From a virus (Duplodnaviria; Heunggongvirae; Uroviricota; Caudoviricetes), in IMG/VR virus record IMGVR_UViG_3300021142_000006: a stretch of DNA of 64,000 nucleotides, one strand, 5' to 3'. Both the position numbers and the translations under genes were made by a program. This document shows, piece by piece, positions 2,185-47,398 of this stretch. Position 1 is the first letter of the stretch, and every line of letters begins with the position of its first letter. The notes beneath the pieces are model-generated. The model made no database searches. It saw nothing but the letters and a program-made list of their open reading frames with translations, and was not told the DNA's origin.

Positions 2185-2814
2185 CTAATCCCACCAACTT
2201 TCTATATTACGTTCTAATAGCGTAAATAAAATACGCCTTGCTTTATTGTGTAAATAATATCCCATATTCATAGCAATAGTTTGTTTGGATTTATTATCAA
2301 AGATATATTTATCTGTCTTTGTAACTTCTTTATAGGCATGTGGATACTTTTTAAAGTAATCATCATACTTTTCCCATATCTCTTCAATCCTTAATGTTGA
2401 ACAATCCTCATACAATTTCCTTTTGTCTTCAGACATTTCATCAAGTTCTTCCTTGGTCACTGGATCAAAATGAAATTTTGATTTATGATAATCCATATAT
2501 TCGCCAGTATAAAATTCATCAGATATGAGCTTCATCAATCTAACACACAACTCCATTTTTTCAGCATCACGAACATTATCAACATGTAAACCCTTTTCAC
2601 GAATGTACTTAGCTTGGAATGTTAATTTTGTCATCATTACTTGCCATATATAATGGTCATCCCAGTCCCTATCTTTCCAAATTACAGGGAACCAACGTAT
2701 AATATTTCTAATGCCTTGATATAAATCCTTATGGTAATATTTACCTTCGAACTTCCACCACAAAAATATCTTCCTGAAGATACTCAGCTTTTTTTCATTA
2801 TTGTCAAAACTCAT
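2185..2814 (-). CDS. hypothetical protein
   Basis: 209-aa Trp-rich ORF ending in TAG. Confidence 0.7.
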   Translation of the reverse strand: MSFDNNEKKLSIFRKIFLWWKFEGKYYHKDLYQGIRNIIRWFPVIWKDRDWDDHYIWQVMMTKLTFQAKYIREKGLHVDNVRDAEKMELCVRLMKLISDEFYTGEYMDYHKSKFHFDPVTKEELDEMSEDKRKLYEDCSTLRIEEIWEKYDDYFKKYPHAYKEVTKTDKYIFDNKSKQTIAMNMGYYLHNKARRILFTLLERNIESWWD

Positions 2815-3026
2815 TATAGATTAATATTTTTTTTCATAAATTCACGAATATAGTGTTGTAACCCAACTTTTTCAATTAGGGCAAGCAACTTTTCAATTTC
2901 TTCATCTTTAATTTGCAAAGATACAATAAATTCATGAATTGAATTGATAGTATCGTCAGTGATATTAAGTTGTTTTAACTTAATTTTAATAGTTTCTTTT
3001 TCCATGGTTTTGGATTTAAAAAACAA
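2814..3026 (-). CDS. hypothetical protein
   Basis: short ORF whose stop overlaps the next start. Confidence 0.5.
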   Translation of the reverse strand: MFFKSKTMEKETIKIKLKQLNITDDTINSIHEFIVSLQIKDEEIEKLLALIEKVGLQHYIREFMKKNINL

Positions 3027-3050
3027 ATATAGTAAAAAATTTTGATTAAA

Positions 3051-3464
3051 TCAACATTCAGGGTTAAATATTGTTATATTATAGGAATTTGATCTCATAT
3101 TATCTATCTTTATATTTGTGAAGAAATAATCCAGTTCATGCATAACTGTTTTCTTCATCAAAAATGTTTTTGATAGTGGTGCATCAAAAAATATATAATC
3201 CAATGACCAGCTATTATTGATAAAATCAATACCACAAACAAAATATAGTTTATCTATGAATTTGATTAATGATTTAAGTTTTTGAGTTTCAAAACCCAAA
3301 AATTCCCCATATTTGTTTTGTGTGTATTCAACTAATATATGAAATTCATATATGTTAAGAATATAATAGTTACCAGAAAATATGTTATTGAATTTATTTC
3401 TGTCAGGATTTCTACGCAAAAATTTACGCATGAAAGTCTTATTTGTTGTATTAAGGTAAATCAT
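3051..3464 (-). CDS. hypothetical protein
   Basis: 137-aa ORF coupled to its neighbour. Confidence 0.55.
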   Translation of the reverse strand: MIYLNTTNKTFMRKFLRRNPDRNKFNNIFSGNYYILNIYEFHILVEYTQNKYGEFLGFETQKLKSLIKFIDKLYFVCGIDFINNSWSLDYIFFDAPLSKTFLMKKTVMHELDYFFTNIKIDNMRSNSYNITIFNPEC

Positions 3465-3754
3465 TAAAATTTAATATCAAATTTATTTTCAATATCTTCT
3501 GGTGTTACATAATTAAACAATTCTGATAGACCATCTATTGGTATCATGATTATTATACCATGTCTATTTTTAAATGCTTCACAAATGTTGAAATAATCTT
3601 CAGAAATTTCCCAATCTTCATAAATATCGATATATATCTTATCGTTTATTATAAATTCTGGGTAAAACGTATTAAACGGAAATGTTTGTTTATTCGTTTC
3701 GCATTTCAAATTATATTTCAAAGCCCACTTATTGAATAGTGATATGTCTTCCAT
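3464..3754 (-). CDS. hypothetical protein
   Basis: 96-aa ORF. Confidence 0.55.
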   Translation of the reverse strand: MEDISLFNKWALKYNLKCETNKQTFPFNTFYPEFIINDKIYIDIYEDWEISEDYFNICEAFKNRHGIIIMIPIDGLSELFNYVTPEDIENKFDIKF

Positions 3755-3835
3755 AATACTTTAATTTAAAATAAATATATAAAAATGATTGTAAAAATGA
3801 AGAGTATTGTGTATTTTTGCCCATATTTATAATTT

Positions 3836-4606
3836 ATGAAAAATATATCATATACAGGGATTATTTTGGATAATAAATCCAGACAACTATTGGCTGAAAA
3901 GTATAAGCAAATGATGCCTGATGGTTGGGAATGGATTGCTCACCATATGACAATAACTATGGGTTCTTTACCCAAGGAAAAACTTGATTTGCTTGGTACA
4001 GAACAATCTATTACCGCTGAATCTTTAGGTATGACCGATATGGTTATGGAAATTGGTGTTTCTGGGTTTGAATCCAAAAATACTCAACCACATGTAACAT
4101 TAGCTGTTAATAGAAAAGATGGTGGTAAACCATTCATGTCAAATAACATAACTGATTGGCAACCAATTGAAGAAAAATTTATACTAACAGGCCAAATTAA
4201 AGAAGTGGGACAACCTGATCAACCTATGAAAAAAAATTTAAAAGAAATTGTGGATATCAACGATTTACCCTTTAAATCGGATGTAACAAAAGCTGGTGGT
4301 AAAATCTATCAAGTTGGCGGTGCTGTACGAGATACCTTCTTGAATAAAACATCTAAAGACCTTGATATTTTAATTACTGGTGTACCTTCAGATAAACTAC
4401 AATCAATATTGAGTAAATACGGTAAAGTGGATCTTGTTGGTGCATCATTTGGTATTATCAAATTTACACCCCCAGGTGGTGAAGAAATTGATATTGCTTT
4501 ACCACGTACTGAAAAGGCTAAAAAACAGATCGTGGTAACTTTAGGTCAAAACGATATATTTATAGAATATAACGATTCAATGAATGAAAGAGAACTTAAA
4601 GGTTAA
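3836..4606 (+). CDS. cca: 2H phosphoesterase domain fused to the N-terminal part of a class II CCA-adding enzyme
   Basis: Two HxT motifs (HMT, HVT), then IYQVGGAVRD...KDLDILI...EIDIALPRTEK (motif A and third carboxylate); ORF stops about 29 aa after RTEK. Confidence 0.88.
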   Translation: MKNISYTGIILDNKSRQLLAEKYKQMMPDGWEWIAHHMTITMGSLPKEKLDLLGTEQSITAESLGMTDMVMEIGVSGFESKNTQPHVTLAVNRKDGGKPFMSNNITDWQPIEEKFILTGQIKEVGQPDQPMKKNLKEIVDINDLPFKSDVTKAGGKIYQVGGAVRDTFLNKTSKDLDILITGVPSDKLQSILSKYGKVDLVGASFGIIKFTPPGGEEIDIALPRTEKAKKQIVVTLGQNDIFIEYNDSMNERELKG

Positions 4607-5579
4607 ATGTCACATTTGTGATTTTGAAACTACAGCTAAAGGTGTTGGTAGGCATTACCATAACATACACGAATTAAAATTATCCGAAAATGCGGATATA
4701 TATCTGATGTATTTTGATTATAACAATCCTGGAATATTGGATGATATAAAAGATATGATTCGAAACGGTATTGGTTTGAAATCCATACAAAAAAAATATC
4801 ATAATATTGGTACTGGGTCGCTACCAATGCTAAAAAAATCATTAAGTAATATATACCCAGATGATTTTAATAAGAAAGTAACTGACAGGGGTAAGCAAAC
4901 CTTACTCAATAATACAGGGTCACGTTACTCTGAAAAATTTATTGAAAGAATGGGTGGTTTTAAAAATCAAACATTAGCAAAAAAAGCGGCTAAAGTCGCT
5001 TCAACTAATGTTTCAAGGTTAGAAAAATTATCTGAAATGTTAAAGTATAATAACCCCTCACATAATCCACAAATTATTGAAAAAAGAAAACAAATATACG
5101 ATGAAAAAACACAAGAAGAAAAAAGGGCAATCATTAAAAAACGATTAGCTACTTGTGAAAAGAATCAATCTTATTTAAAACGAGCTGAAACAATAATAAA
5201 AAAATATGGTGGGTTTGTTGCGTATGGTAATAAAACGGCAGGTCATTCAAATTGGCATGATAAGTTAAAACAAATGTTAATCGAAAACAATATAATAACA
5301 GAATCGGAACAAACTGTCGTTAACAATTACACAAGTGATGAGGTTGATTTAGAGAAAAAAATTATTATTGAGCTAAATGGTGATTTTTGGCATTGTAATC
5401 CAAAATTTTATAATGGTGACTATTATCACCCTTTTATTAAAATGACAGCTAAACAAATTTGGGATAAGGATGAAAAACGAATATCTGATTATATTCAAAA
5501 TGGTTGGCGAGTGATTGTTATTTGGGAATCAGATGATTTAAACGAAAAGATTAACGAATTGAAAAAAATATATGGATAA
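4584..5579 (+). mobile_element. free-standing homing endonuclease gene (Vsr/DUF559-like, C2H2 finger at N-terminus) inserted in cca
   Basis: CHIC..HYHNIH finger; C-terminal DEVDLEKKIIIELNGDFWH...GWRVIVIWESD; overlaps both cca halves. Confidence 0.85.
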
Positions 5580-6600
5580 GAAAAAAATATTACAACTATT
5601 AGAATTAAATGGTTTCAATGTCATTAACGGAGTTGTTTACAATAAACCAGAAAATATAATTAGTTTTTTAAATAAAACAATTAAGCCGACTAAGATAAAA
5701 AATTTAGCTGGTCATAAAGGATTTGATGTGACTTCCGACCATACTCTACCAATTGAAAAGGATCTTGAAAGGCGTGATTTTACTATCAACTCAATAGCTA
5801 AGGATGCTGAAGGTAATCTAATTGATCCATACAAGGGTATTGAAGATATTAAAACAAAAACTATACGTTTAACAAATCCTGAAGCTTTTGCTGATGACCC
5901 TTTGAGAATGCTAAGATCGGTTCAATTTGCTTCGAGGTTTGGATTCACAATTGAGCCTCATACTTTTGATATGATTCAAAAAAACGCCGATTCAATCAAA
6001 ACAATAGCGTTTGAAAGGGTTATAGAAGAGTTTCAAAAGATTGTAGATAAAGGTTCACCCTATGTTGGTGTCACTTTGTTGGTTAAGTCTGGTTTATATG
6101 AAGGTATTTTTGATAGCAGGTTTCTTGGCTCATTCAAACCATTTAATCATGTCAACAAACTAAGTGAATTTATTTATTGGTTATTACAACCAATTACAAA
6201 AGACCCAGCAGCTTATTTCATGAAAGTTATGAAAGGTGATTTGAAGACTCATGCTGAAATGAAAGCCTTACAATTGGTTATGGATAAACCTGTGAGAACT
6301 GACCTTGAGGATAAATGGATGGTTTTTGGTGTAAATAAGATTGCGCCGACAATGTTTGATAGTTATTTCATATTGAACGAATTGGATAACGTATTACCAT
6401 TTTTCGAAGATGGTAGATATCCGATATCATATAAACAATTAGCTATTAATGGTAATGATCTGGAAAGTCTGGGCTTTAAAAACGAAAAAGTTGGTCTTGG
6501 ATTGAAGTTGGCTATGGATGCTGTTTACTCTGATACCGTTGCAAACGATAAATCACAACTTTTGCAATATGTGTCTGGTAAAATGAAAACAAAAGGTTAA
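5572..6600 (+). CDS. cca: C-terminal part of class II CCA-adding enzyme
   Basis: GHKGFDV...KDLERRDFTINSIA (motif B), DDPLRMLRSVQFASRF (motif D), ERVIEEFQK, C-terminal LAINGNDL; no HD domain. Confidence 0.9.
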   Translation: MDKKKILQLLELNGFNVINGVVYNKPENIISFLNKTIKPTKIKNLAGHKGFDVTSDHTLPIEKDLERRDFTINSIAKDAEGNLIDPYKGIEDIKTKTIRLTNPEAFADDPLRMLRSVQFASRFGFTIEPHTFDMIQKNADSIKTIAFERVIEEFQKIVDKGSPYVGVTLLVKSGLYEGIFDSRFLGSFKPFNHVNKLSEFIYWLLQPITKDPAAYFMKVMKGDLKTHAEMKALQLVMDKPVRTDLEDKWMVFGVNKIAPTMFDSYFILNELDNVLPFFEDGRYPISYKQLAINGNDLESLGFKNEKVGLGLKLAMDAVYSDTVANDKSQLLQYVSGKMKTKG

Positions 6601-14913: not shown

Positions 14914-15126
14914 ATTATTAACATTCACATATACATGTAATTGTATAACATTCATAACATCTGTAACCATCTTTGATATTGGAAATTATAAAGTCGTTGG
15001 CATATTTATCAATCGGTAAATCTCTTTTGATTTTTTCATCAATAACTTTTTTTTCCTCATCACTTAGTTTTCTATAATCTTTTCTTTTTTTCATTTTATA
15101 GTATAAAAAGCTTCAAAAGTTCCAGG

Positions 15127-15213
15127 CGGAGAGTTGCATAATCGAAATGCACCCAAATTAATGAGCCGCTCACTTAGCAGGTGGCGACAGCGACCCTGGC
15201 TGTTTAACTCTCC
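15127..15213 (-). tRNA. tRNA-Ser(GCU)
   Basis: GGAGAGU/ACUCUCC, G73, loop CUGCUAA, long variable arm; bulged anticodon stem. Confidence 0.82.
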
Positions 15214-16322: not shown

Positions 16323-16428
16323 TTTCTTTTAATTTTTTATAGTTTTTTTAAAAATAACCAGGATAATGTTTTTTTCTTACCAATAGAAGTTTTTAACTGC
16401 TGGAATTATCCTCTTGTTATATATAGTA

Positions 16429-16459
16429 CAAAAGTAGTAAAAATTTTTGAAAAAACAAA
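16429..16459 (-). promoter_or_regulatory. Bacteroidetes-type sigma-A promoter for leader/array 1
   Basis: TTTG-N19-TACTTTTG on the minus strand. Confidence 0.78.
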
Positions 16460-25812: not shown

Positions 25813-25828
25813 TGAAATATAAATTATG

Positions 25829-25900
25829 TGGCTCGTACCAGGATCGAACTGGTGACTCTGGAGTTTAGAATTCCGAATGTTGCCGCTACACCAACGAGCC
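25829..25900 (-). tRNA. amber suppressor tRNA (anticodon CUA); amino-acid identity unknown
   Basis: GGCUCGU/ACGAGCC, GUGU/ACAU D stem, CGGAA-UUCUAAA-CUCCA, 5-nt variable loop, ACCAG-UUCGAUC-CUGGU; canonical spacing puts CUA at 34-36; only 3 of 5 anticodon-stem pairs. Confidence 0.78.
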
Positions 25901-25908
25901 TGATCTGA

Positions 25909-26238
25909 TTACATCAATCGTGAACCAGGATTACCCATTAAATCAAGAGTATCACCACTTGACGGCACCATTATCATCGCAGATGACATTATACCCATAA
26001 TTTTAGCTGGTTCAAGATTTGTTATAAAAGGATAAACCGAATTTACAAGTTCATTACAATCAATTCTGTTACCGATGTTTGTCATTACTGTTCTAACATC
26101 TTCATTTCCGAAGTTCACAGTTAACTTTAACATCTTATCACTTTTTTCCACTTTTTCTGCGGACGTGATTTCACCTAACAATATTTCAACTTTATCACTA
26201 AGTTCCTTGTAAGTATTGAAGTCTATATTTTTTTTCAT
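25909..26238 (-). CDS. tRNA-binding OB-fold protein (Trbp111/CsaA/MetRS C-terminal-like)
   Basis: GEITSAEKVEKSDKMLKLTVNFG...TNLEPAKIMGIMSSAMI. Confidence 0.85.
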   Translation of the reverse strand: MKKNIDFNTYKELSDKVEILLGEITSAEKVEKSDKMLKLTVNFGNEDVRTVMTNIGNRIDCNELVNSVYPFITNLEPAKIMGIMSSAMIMVPSSGDTLDLMGNPGSRLM

Positions 26239-26257
26239 ATATTTAATTTAAATTTAG

Positions 26258-26330
26258 AGTACATGGATGGATTCGAACCACCGAATTGATACTTTGCAGG
26301 CACCTGCCTTAACCACTCGACCACATGTAC
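26258..26330 (-). tRNA. tRNA-Cys(GCA)
   Basis: GUACAUG/CAUGUAC, U73, loop CUGCAAA. Confidence 0.9.
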
Positions 26331-26356
26331 AAGTTTGTGTAGTATTAATAACTACA

Positions 26357-26387
26357 CAAAAGTAATAAAAGTTTTTAAATAAACAAA
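26357..26387 (-). promoter_or_regulatory. Bacteroidetes-type promoter upstream of tRNA-Cys
   Basis: TTTG-N19-TACTTTTG. Confidence 0.7.
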
Positions 26388-35734: not shown

Positions 35735-35800
35735 ATGATTTATAATTATTTACAAAAATAATAAAAGTTTTTCAAACTTCCAAATTTATTTAAATAATTG

Positions 35801-35886
35801 TGCGACTGAAGGGAGTCGAACCCTCACGAACCTTACGGCTCATTGGTTTTTAAGACCAACCTGGTTACCAGTTACAGCACAGTCGC
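35801..35886 (-). tRNA. tRNA-Leu(UAA)
   Basis: GCGACUG/CAGUCGC, loop CUUAAAA, long variable arm. Confidence 0.92.
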
Positions 35887-35928: not shown

Positions 35929-35959
35929 CAAAAGTAATAAACTTTTTTGAAAAAACAAA
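35929..35959 (-). promoter_or_regulatory. Bacteroidetes-type promoter inside array 2
   Basis: TTTG-N19-TACTTTTG. Confidence 0.7.
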
Positions 35960-35963
35960 AAAT

Positions 35964-36167
35964 TTAAGGTTTATTTTGTTCATTGAAAAATTTTATCCAG
36001 ATTTTAAAAAAAGCATGTGCTTTTCGTTTCATATCTAATTCATTTTTTGCTGAAAAATACGAATTGATTTCAGGCAAATAACAAGAAATCAAGCCATCTT
36101 TATTAGATGTATATTTGATTTCAAATGGTATATCTGTTGTTATAGATTTTTCATATTTGTTTACCAT
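35964..36167 (-). CDS. hypothetical protein inside array 2
   Basis: 67-aa ORF. Confidence 0.5.
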   Translation of the reverse strand: MVNKYEKSITTDIPFEIKYTSNKDGLISCYLPEINSYFSAKNELDMKRKAHAFFKIWIKFFNEQNKP

Positions 36168-36177
36168 AAAAAATTTT

Positions 36178-36252
36178 TGGTTGCTCCACCCAGAATCGAA
36201 CTGGATTTTCTTGAGTATCAGTCAAGCGTTATAACCATTCTACTATGGAGCA
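36178..36252 (-). tRNA. tRNA-Ile(GAU)
   Basis: UGCUCCA/UGGAGCA, loop CUGAUAC, CCA encoded. Confidence 0.9.
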
Positions 36253-36261
36253 ATATTTGTG

Positions 36262-36333
36262 TAGTTACGTCAAGATTCGAACTTGAATTAACAGGGTCAA
36301 AACCTGTTGTGCTAACCGTTGCACCACGTAACT
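36262..36333 (-). tRNA. tRNA-Gln(UUG)
   Basis: AGUUACG/CGUAACU, loop UUUUGAC. Confidence 0.88.
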
Positions 36334-36355
36334 ATCTAAGACTATAATTCCCTTG

Positions 36356-36429
36356 TAGTCCAAGAGGGATTCGAACCCTCACTGTATAGTTTCTAAAACT
36401 ATTGCCTCTCCCATTTGGGCTACTGAACC
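36356..36429 (-). tRNA. tRNA-Leu(UAG), short variable loop
   Basis: AUAGU-UUUAGAA-ACUAU. Confidence 0.82.
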
Positions 36430-36435
36430 ATTATG

Positions 36436-36517
36436 TGACTCTGGTCGGACTCGAACCGACACGTCCTAAAACACTGGCTTCTTAGACCAGCCTGGCTACC
36501 AATTACAGCACAGAGCC
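36436..36517 (-). tRNA. tRNA-Leu(AAG)
   Basis: CUGGU-CUAAGAA-GCCAG, long variable arm, Leu-type D arm. Confidence 0.87.
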
Positions 36518-36526
36518 ATTATATTG

Positions 36527-36600
36527 TGACTATGGAAAGATTCGAACTTTCAACCCCTCCGTCCGTAGCGGAGTGCGCTAATCCGTTGCGCCACATAGCC
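36527..36600 (-). tRNA. tRNA-Arg(ACG)
   Basis: GGCUAUG/CAUAGUC, loop CUACGGA. Confidence 0.92.
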
Positions 36601-36602
36601 GT

Positions 36603-36640
36603 AAAATAAAAAACCCCAGATCGCTTTGCGTACTGGGGCT
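36603..36640 (-). terminator. attenuator terminator of tRNA array 2
   Basis: GCCCCAG/CUGGGGU stem plus U-tract about 10 nt before tRNA-Arg. Confidence 0.85.
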
Positions 36641-36668
36641 TAAGTTTTCCTTTCTTAATTCTTCTATG

Positions 36669-36758
36669 TTATGAAAAAGTTTTAACAATAGATGCCCCAT
36701 CTCTTAAAATTAAGAGTTGTAACTGTTGTAGGCGAATAATGTTATTAACGTTTTTCAT
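36669..36758 (-). CDS. leader peptide 2 (29 aa, MKNVNNIIRLQQLQLLILRDGASIVKTFS)
   Basis: hand-translated; contains UGGGGC, complementary to the terminator 5' arm. Confidence 0.82.
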   Translation of the reverse strand: MKNVNNIIRLQQLQLLILRDGASIVKTFS

Positions 36759-36971
36759 TTTAAAATATTTTATGCTTTTATATAAATATGTTCTTTTTTT
36801 AAAAAAAATCGGAATAATGTTTTTTTCTTATTTAGCAAGGTTTAAATGCTGAAATTATTCCCTTTATAAAATACGGATTGCTTTTTTTTGACGTTTTAAA
36901 TTGGAAGTTTAAATTGGAAGTTTAAATTGATAAAAATTTGCTGTAGGCAATCCCATTATTTCAATATAGTA

Positions 36972-37003
36972 CAAAAGTAATAAACAATTTTTAAAAAAAC
37001 AAG
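36972..37003 (-). promoter_or_regulatory. Bacteroidetes-type promoter for leader/array 2
   Basis: CTTG-N20-TACTTTTG. Confidence 0.7.
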
Positions 37004-42424: not shown

Positions 42425-42495
42425 TGCGCCATGAAGGTACTGACCCTTCTTCCACGAGTTAAAAGCTCGTTACTTCACCTTAAAGCTTATAGCGC
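42425..42495 (-). tRNA. tRNA-Lys(UUU), atypical T-loop
   Basis: ACGAG-CUUUUAA-CUCGU; T-loop GUCAGUA. Confidence 0.83.
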
Positions 42496-42583: not shown

Positions 42584-42958
42584 ATGAAAGAAAAATTATG
42601 TTCAAGATGTAAACAACCAAAACAAGAGTCTGACTTTTATCATAGAAAAAGTAGAAAAAATAGTGCATTTGGTATGTGTAAAGTATGTTTTAACTCTTAT
42701 TGTGTTCAACGATGGATTGAACGCAAAATAGACGCTATACATTACAAAGGTGACAAATGCGTAGATTGTTCTACTTCTTATCCAGAATATCCATATGTTA
42801 TCTTTGATTTTCACCATTTAGATCCAAATAAAAAAGATATGGATTGGACTAAATTAAGATTACAATCTTGGGATAAAATAACGGATGAACTTGATAAATG
42901 TGTTTTACTTTGTTCTAACTGTCATCGTATACGGCACCATAACGAAATAAAATTTTAG
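42584..42958 (+). mobile_element. HNH endonuclease gene inserted in tRNA-Arg
   Basis: CSRCK..C..C finger; CVDC..FDFHHLDP..CVLLCSNCHRIRH; antisense to the array. Confidence 0.88.
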
Positions 42959-43029
42959 TGCTCCCAAGAGGATTCGAACCTCTATGAAGACTTTAGAAGA
43001 GTCTCGTCCTTCCATTGAACGATGGGAGC
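42959..43029 (-). tRNA. tRNA-Arg(UCU), intact
   Basis: GCUCCCA/UGGGAGC; AGACU-CUUCUAA-AGUCU. Confidence 0.9.
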
Positions 43030-45338: not shown

Positions 45339-45461
45339 TCATCCTGGATGGATTCGAACCACCGACACACAGTTCTACATATAAAATTTTCACTGCGGAA
45401 CACATTCTCATCAGAATGCTCTTTTTTTTTACCGTTGCTCTACCAACTGAGCTACAGGATG
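45339..45461 (-). ncRNA. tRNA scaffold (Phe-like body) with 57 nt in place of the anticodon loop
   Basis: CAUCCUG/CAGGAUG, GCUC/GAGC, ACGGU/ACUGU, GGUGG-UUCGAAU-CCAUC all intact. Confidence 0.75.
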
Positions 45462-46545: not shown

Positions 46546-46666
46546 AGCTGACGGATAGAATCGAACCACCGACTCTGGCTTGGAATGCATATAACTGTTA
46601 ATTGCGGTATGGAATCTCATCAGATTCACTTGTTTTAACAGCGTGTTACCATTACACTACATCAGC
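46546..46666 (-). ncRNA. tRNA-Gly(UCC)-like scaffold with a ~50-nt anticodon insert
   Basis: GCUGAUG/CGUCAGC, U73; residual UUCCAA-GCCAG 3' anticodon half; insert hairpin GAAUCU-GAUG-AGAUUC. Confidence 0.75.
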
Positions 46667-47286: not shown

Positions 47287-47366
47287 AAATTCGGAATGGG
47301 GTTTTAGCTTGAATCATTAAAAGTGAATTGCTTAAAAATTTGCTGGAACCATTCCCATTTGTTTTA

Positions 47367-47398
47367 CAAAAGTATGAAGTTATTTTCAAACTTCCAAA
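47367..47398 (-). promoter_or_regulatory. Bacteroidetes-type promoter inside array 3
   Basis: TTTG-N20-TACTTTTG. Confidence 0.68.

Follow-up and report, generated by a model that had tools for sequence, protein, structure and literature searches.

A probable leader-peptide attenuator ahead of a tRNA gene array in a phage genome

The purpose of phage tRNA genes has been under debate for some 50 years and, to our knowledge, next to nothing is known of their regulation. Two proposals dominate, codon compensation and the evasion of defences that target tRNA, and papers on phage tRNAs treat codon supply and anticodon-nuclease escape, not regulation (PMC10264068; PMC11555353). At the locus described here, a short open reading frame (ORF) with a run of codons readable by the tRNAs encoded behind it is placed between a promoter and an intrinsic terminator. 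This ORF (leader 2) and its surroundings probably form a trp-like, ribosome-mediated transcription attenuator, that is, a leader-peptide attenuator, that controls the phage tRNA operon, regulation being the part that we infer.

The window, meaning the whole stretch of 64,000 nt that was analysed, is AT-rich (GC about 30%) and also encodes collagen-repeat proteins and glycosyltransferases. Its DNA was found in freshwater and lake metagenomes from at least 17 studies. A blastn comparison with GenBank phages gave tRNA-level matches only and no close relative; of the relatives found, a complete IMG/VR phage contig of 321 kb (G001) is the nearest, and it was also the sole relative recovered by DNA-pattern and profile scans of viral_contigs. 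A pattern scan of metagenome_contigs returned 51 stretches, all chance matches, with a tRNA downstream in none of the 51. One metatranscriptome contig covers only 36881-36957 of the window and then continues into unlike sequence.

Default ARAGORN called 28 tRNA genes in the window, every one on the minus strand, and Infernal or relaxed ARAGORN recognized four further tRNAs. A tRNA-Lys(UUU) at 42425-42495 lies beyond the default calls, and a tRNA-Ser(GCU) on the minus strand (~15125-15213) was missed by default and recovered at the relaxed threshold. The remaining two are tRNA-like genes of about 120 nt on the minus strand (45339-45461 and 46546-46666); close to the anticodon arm they carry an insert of 42-50 nt, and they score 41-46 bits with Infernal and are called by ARAGORN only as intron-containing.

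The array downstream of leader 2, on the minus strand as well, begins with tRNA-Arg(ACG) (36526-36600), followed by tRNA-Leu(AAG) (36435-36517), tRNA-Leu(UAG) (36355-36429), tRNA-Gln(UUG) (36261-36333) and tRNA-Ile(GAU) (36178-36252). The preliminary description had counted tRNA-Leu(UAA) (35800-35886, minus strand) in the same array. This gene does lie downstream and could be reached by read-through from leader 2, but it is also preceded by a promoter of its own (35958..35929, minus strand), which belongs to the class of the leader 2 promoter. A 67-aa ORF with no Pfam match (35964-36167, minus strand) is located inside the array, between tRNA-Ile and the promoter of tRNA-Leu(UAA).

The promoter of leader 2, as read from the sequence, occupies 36972..37003 on the minus strand, with cTTG at -33 (37003..37000) and TACTTTTG at -7 (36979..36972). 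It fits a Bacteroidota-type promoter: TTTG...TAnnTTTG is the pattern that we take to be typical of Bacteroidota, and the tRNA-array promoters of the window conform to it. Promoters of the same class were found upstream of the other tRNA arrays of the window, at 16458, 26386, 35958, 47397 and 47819. The leader ORF follows on the minus strand (36669..36758) and comprises 29 codons from the ATG at 36758 to the TAA at 36669. The ATG of this putatively translated ORF is preceded by an A/U-rich context with no Shine-Dalgarno sequence.

Codons 7-19 of this ORF, from ATT ATT CGC to TTA AGA, are exactly those given in the preliminary description (IIRLQQLQLLILR). Its accompanying claim that the run matches the downstream array stands for codons 7-18 (IIRLQQLQLLIL; 36705..36740, minus strand), all 12 of which are readable by array tRNAs (Arg-ACG, Leu-AAG, Leu-UAG, Gln-UUG, Ile-GAU and Leu-UAA). 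It does not extend to codon 19, since AGA is served by the tRNA-Arg(UCU) of another array (42958-43029). Readability was assigned by ordinary wobble rules with A34 taken as inosine, and CTC is read by Leu-AAG only on this assumption about position 34.

The 12-codon run (36740..36705) is the longest array-readable run in the six frames of the 64-kb window, the runner-up having nine codons, against a background of array-readable codons of 15% in the long ORFs and 21% over all frames. Three of its codons are rare in the phage ORFs, CGC making up 1% of Arg codons and CTC and CTA 3% and 5% of Leu codons, respectively, so the run does not merely consist of the phage's favoured codons. If five Leu codons were drawn according to usage, CTA, CTC and TTA would all be among them in only 2% of draws. 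Under strict wobble, the best 12-codon stretch of leader 2 scores 12 against its own array and 2 and 5 against the other two arrays of the window (3 and 7 of 12 by relaxed rules).

The layout of promoter, ORF and terminator is repeated before these two other window arrays and before three arrays of G001, and each leader matches its own array. Leader 1 (ATG 16322, among the minus-strand arrays) contains sixteen consecutive Ala, Ser, Trp, Pro, Tyr and Glu codons and precedes a Tyr/Pro/Ser/Trp/Ser/Glu/Glu/Ala array; the AGT and AGC codons in it are explained by the tRNA-Ser(GCU) mentioned above. Leader 3 (ATG 47751) carries a run that matches the His...Arg-UCU/Lys array, and an RNase H-like gene beside it has no relative in viral_contigs. 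Leaders 1 and 3 both score 12 against their own arrays, and in both the terminator abuts the first tRNA and its 5' arm has a 12-bp complement. Homologous leaders precede the Tyr... and Arg/Leu/Gln arrays of G001. A further leader in this phage is rich in Val, Ile (ATT, ATA), Lys (AAG, AAA) and His codons and is followed by an array of Lys-CUU, Lys-UUU, Ile-UAU, Val-UAC, His-GUG and Ile-GAU.

Relatives of leader 2 itself were reached through the 205-aa gene upstream of it, for which there are 22 homologues with 54-100% identity; their contigs gave 10 distinct leader sequences from lake metagenomes, which were aligned (alignment A1). An open in-frame ORF of 27-33 codons is kept in 10 of 10 despite indels, with the GGG directly behind the run (in region 2, see below) in the same phase, and the stop codon is always 65-70 nt before tRNA-Arg. 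The encoded peptides share a core of R-L/Q-Q-Q-L-Q-L-L..., while their N- and C-terminal parts are unrelated. A regulatory leader would be predicted to show just this pattern, in which frame, run and spacing are conserved and the peptide ends are not.

The Ile codons of the run follow the tRNA gene content of the arrays. Three ATT codons are present where the array holds tRNA-Ile(GAU), namely in the window, L041, L031 and L034/35. Where the array is without this tRNA (G001/L001, L028, L032/33 and L039/40), ATA or no Ile codon is found at that place, together with more Gln codons; in G001 it is the other array that holds Ile-GAU and His-GUG, and ATT and CAT/CAC are found in the leader of that array. 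The exception is L029/L030, with three ATT and seven Gln codons and neither tRNA in the array. This array stops after four tRNAs beside unrelated genes (a TnpB fragment, a TPM phosphatase and a TonB plug) and is probably truncated. In L029 the stretch 2718-5612 runs from the Arg/Leu array into a Cas12f1/TnpB-like fragment, the TPM phosphatase and the TonB-plug gene, and it may represent an insertion, a junction with host DNA or a chimeric assembly in which the array was truncated and the leader left unchanged.

The match of codon to isoacceptor is inexact in some relatives. CTC is invariant even without Leu-AAG in the array (L034, L039 and L029), TTA is kept in relatives where no Leu-UAA was seen, and L039 has a TTG codon without Leu-CAA. 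CTC, TTA and AGA may be fixed by structure, being part of a conserved hairpin that is described below. A tree of the 205-aa neighbour protein did not resolve the branching, so that independent gains and losses of tRNA-Ile could not be counted and the association of Ile tRNA with ATT may rest on a single event.

The same switch could in principle respond to amino-acid starvation, with uncharged tRNA as the signal and the array induced when Leu, Ile, Gln or Arg is low. Stalling is established as a report of aminoacyl-tRNA supply in trp and his attenuation and cannot by itself separate charging from abundance, and a run that spans four amino acids would suit such a sensor. This reading is nevertheless considered improbable, although it survives better than the other alternatives, because extra tRNA does not relieve amino-acid starvation. 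Moreover, a run that samples rare isoacceptor-specific codons (CGC, CTC, CTA) and whose Ile codons track tRNA genes fits tRNA supply better than amino-acid supply.

The presumed switch of leader 2 lies in the RNA behind the run, on the minus strand throughout. The intrinsic terminator (36640..36613, with a U-tract that extends to 36603) begins 28-29 nt after the stop codon of the leader, and its end is 3 nt from tRNA-Arg(ACG), which starts at 36600. It consists of a 5' arm, AGCCCCAG (region 3, 36633..36640), and a 3' part (36603..36630) with the inner CGC/GCG helix, the 3' arm CUGGGGU (36619..36613) and the U-tract UUUUUUAUUUU, and its folding energy is about -16 to -18 kcal/mol. Directly after the run, at codons 20-22, lies UGGGGC (region 2, 36694..36699), the 5' strand of an antiterminator whose 3' strand is the GCCCCA (36639..36634) within region 3. 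Inside the run is an internal hairpin with arms CUCUUA and UAAGAG around AUUU (36701..36716), and GCCU from CGC-CUA at codons 9-10 (region 1, 36730..36733) can pair with region 2 around this hairpin.

All structural elements named in the preliminary description were borne out here; the UGGGGC at 36699..36694 is indeed complementary to the GCCCCA of the terminator 5' arm at 36639..36634 and CUCUUA/UAAGAG is present within the run at 36716..36701. It had also allowed that an antiterminator of 6 bp might be too weak to compete with the terminator. The antiterminator domain folds at -14.0 kcal/mol, with -8.5 contributed by the helix of regions 2 and 3 (2:3), compared with -16.1 kcal/mol for the terminator; given these close energies, and an antiterminator that is transcribed first, competition appears feasible. 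In the relatives the antiterminator domain ranges from -13.5 to -28.2 and the terminator from -15.7 to -17.0 kcal/mol. When the transcript was folded only to the terminator loop, region 2 paired with the 5' arm in leader 2 and in all five other leaders tested.

Both helices vary in concert among the 10 sequences. The terminator is paired in 95% of cells and three of its pairs are changed on both sides, a result that none of the shuffles or shifted registers approached. The six antiterminator pairs are formed in 93% of cells and include two compensatory pairs, the outer pair changing from U-A to A-U in two sequences and the inner end pair from C-G to U-A in four, whereby an Ala codon becomes Val; the covariation score was reached by 0 of 500 shuffles. 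Of the cells of the internal hairpin, 95% are paired; in L037, the most distant relative, its place is taken by a hairpin of another sequence.

Four features of a leader-peptide attenuator are present, namely a translatable ORF, a cluster of cognate codons, a terminator and an antiterminator exclusive of it. We infer that the leader is translated, that ribosomes stall in it and that read-through is regulated, in the following manner. Transcription would begin at the promoter and a ribosome would translate the 29-codon leader. With scarce Ile, Arg, Leu or Gln aminoacyl-tRNAs, it would stall at codons 7-16, covering region 1 and the internal hairpin and leaving region 2 free to pair with the emerging terminator 5' arm. 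The terminator would then be blocked and RNA polymerase would read into the five tRNA genes, and possibly Leu-UAA too. With fast decoding, the ribosome would pass region 2 to the stop codon, the terminator would form and transcription would end before tRNA-Arg. The net effect would be negative feedback, the array being made when its own codons are decoded slowly. As a counterpoint, host tRNAs also read the codons of the run, and stalling would require a real shortage.

By footprint arithmetic, A-site stalls at codons 7-15 cover the GCCU and leave the UGGGGC free, an interval that coincides with the run, and with simulated ribosome masks on leader 2, the 2:3 pairing is retained in stalls at codons 8-16 and lost when the ribosome stands at codon 18. 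The static fold still predicts the 2:3 antiterminator when the ribosome is placed on the stop codon, so termination at fast decoding needs either a kinetic or steric argument or pairing of regions 1 and 2 (1:2). At the moment when regions 3 and 4 emerge, region 2 may be covered, or the ribosome may be located in the loop of 56 nt, and the constant distance from stop codon to terminator argues for a role of ribosome position. In addition or instead, region 2 might pair locally behind the ribosome with the GCCU around the hairpin, giving a trp-like 1:2 structure that could possibly act as an anti-antiterminator or a pause structure. Nine relatives have GGGG in region 2, and in these the modelled gain from this pairing is -4.3 to -7.3 kcal/mol; region 2 of L037 pairs with another part of the run (-2.0 kcal/mol). 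The alignment columns concerned are nearly invariant and hence hold no informative covariation.

Two copies of a structured element sit between the promoter and the leader ORF. Copy 1 (36875..36954, minus strand) has the stem GGGATTGC/GCAATCC, with a CAGCA motif after the 5' strand and a 13-nt tandem repeat in the loop, and copy 2 (36801..36862, minus strand) has the stem GGGAATAAT/ATTATTCC and is followed by eight U (36808..36801). The element recurs directly after tRNA-array promoters, on the minus strand of the window at 36801-36954, 16345-16420 and 47290-47365, and also at L010 9795-9862 (minus), L011 10845-10930 (minus) and L001 ~4690-4790, and it is found both with and without a leader ORF. 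Its general form is a stem of 7-9 bp with YCAGCA after the 5' strand, an A-rich loop, and CCGA and U-rich sequence after the 3' strand. The stem strands, which include AGGATAAT/ATTATCCT and GGGAATGG/CCATTCCC besides those given above, differ among paralogous copies yet remain complementary. It is on these complementary stems, not on energy, that the reality of the elements depends, their stability being no greater than that of shuffled sequence (z -0.2 to -1.1). No Rfam match was obtained for the element.

Such conserved elements, through which it might act, would suit a terminator governed by a non-ribosomal factor, such as an RNA or an antitermination protein of the phage or host, in which case the ORF would be incidental or would serve to stabilize the RNA. 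The static fold, which leaves termination after normal translation unexplained, points the same way. However, the reading frame is kept through indels in the 10 relatives, with a codon content that follows the array. The upstream element is also absent from leader 3 and from the Lys/Ile/Val/His leader of G001, both of which have ORF and terminator, and it is present after some promoters that have no terminator. No T-box or other known switch was recognized by Rfam either. A non-ribosomal switch is therefore judged unlikely, slightly more so than a starvation signal. When the entire window and 40 kb of the related phage were scanned with Rfam at gathering thresholds, tRNA was the only family matched, and none of the curated leader families (Leu_leader, His_leader, Thr_leader, Trp_leader and others) matched at gathering score. 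A T-box riboswitch was rejected as a candidate, as no stem I, specifier loop or T-box match was given by Rfam and a single specifier could not read six tRNA species.

The ORF is annotated by gene callers as a 33-aa product in some contigs and, given its conservation, it might encode a functional micropeptide, the terminator then being a constitutive, leaky insulator between ORF and tRNAs. This is quite unlikely, in that only the run and region 2 are conserved and not the ends of the peptide, region 2 covaries with the terminator arm, and four unrelated leaders each mirror their own array. That ORF and complementarity arose by chance in AT-rich intergenic DNA is hardly credible, even though short ORFs are common in this DNA, since a 12-codon run at a background of 0.15-0.21 is expected far less than once per window (runner-up 9) and this one, flanked precisely by promoter and terminator of the array that it matches, is conserved with covariation.

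The attenuator proposed for leader 2 shares much with the leader-peptide attenuators of operons for amino-acid biosynthesis, those of trpL, hisL, leuL, thrL, pheL and ilvGMEDA: a short promoter-proximal ORF with a run of regulatory codons, a segment after the run that pairs with the terminator 5' arm (2:3 versus 3:4), and a possible upstream 1:2 or pause-like hairpin. In those systems, as in the proposal for leader 2, the position of the ribosome decides between termination and read-through. The closest of them in logic and anatomy is the multivalent ilvGMEDA leader. Unlike the amino-acid attenuators, leader 2 targets tRNA genes and not enzymes, so that the loop would close on decoding capacity, and its run mixes four amino acids, five to six isoacceptors and rare codons. 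It is also phage-encoded, in a Bacteroidota-type setting, without a Shine-Dalgarno sequence and with an ORF that runs 10 codons past region 2. The resemblance to the amino-acid leaders in Rfam is therefore one of mechanism, not of sequence family.

Two further systems are related in part. In E. coli, pheST (with its pheM leader) is likewise a component of the translation apparatus under a leader peptide that senses the cognate aminoacyl-tRNA, but what is controlled is a synthetase, for one amino acid only, and the system is cellular and not viral. In T-box riboswitches the status of a tRNA likewise decides between terminator and antiterminator upstream of translation-related genes; they differ in that a specifier codon and the T-box sequence bind one uncharged tRNA directly, and in having no ORF.

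A similar cassette is present in the tractable system of Caulobacter and its phage phiCbK (JX100813, about 51.3-51.6 kb; locus L043). A 32-codon ORF containing QFVRQIQVVRNI and then an annotated terminator precede a Phe-Val-Ile-Ile-Val-Gln-Gln tRNA block, and an annotated ORF of 45 aa, in which Ser, Leu, Pro and Lys are frequent and which is again followed by a terminator, precedes a Pro-Pro-Lys-Lys-Leu-Leu-Leu-Ser-Ser block. These small ORFs and annotated terminators, ahead of tRNA blocks mirrored in their amino acids, were noted at 4360-4630 and 2541-2792 of the locus, and one of the ORFs is annotated as hypothetical protein gp083. As in the window, a mini-ORF of the codons of the following tRNA block is succeeded by a terminator. 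The phiCbK cassette differs from leader 2 in having no sequence relationship to it, a Caulobacter host as against a probable Bacteroidota one, and a different promoter.

No description of leader-peptide attenuation of tRNA genes was found in the full texts searched, those of openly accessible journals. If the proposed reading is true, phages measure decoding capacity and adjust their tRNA output, and classical attenuation is extended from metabolic genes to tRNA genes. The composition of a leader would then predict which tRNAs matter, and when, which would provide an experimental handle. The comparative signal is unusually clear, leader codons moving with tRNA genes between arrays and compensatory changes occurring in both terminator and antiterminator. 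A broader proposal, which we offer tentatively and hold to be less probable than attenuation at leader 2, is that large phages might put their tRNA arrays under demand-sensing feedback. Each leader would act as a roll-call that polls decoding capacity isoacceptor by isoacceptor and opens the terminator when reading is slow, for example early in infection, when codon demand exceeds the host pool, or upon destruction of host tRNAs by anticodon nucleases, retron effectors or PARIS. In the latter situation the attenuator could be the sensor that switches on a counter-defence.

Not every array promoter in these phages is followed by a leader. Promoters without one precede the Cys/suppressor array, the tRNA-Phe inside array C, tRNA-Leu(UAA) and the Phe... 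array of G001. The internal promoter before tRNA-Phe lies just after tRNA-His (47367-47397, minus strand), and together with that before tRNA-Leu(UAA) (35929-35958) it implies that some of the genes in each array can be transcribed without passing the attenuator. Downstream of a leaderless promoter in the region 25828-26386 (minus strand) lie tRNA-Cys, a gene for a protein of 108 aa in which a tRNA-binding domain was recognized (PF01588, E 2e-16), and a tRNA with the anticodon CUA. This last tRNA, of the amber suppressor type, hints at some read-through of TAG in this phage.
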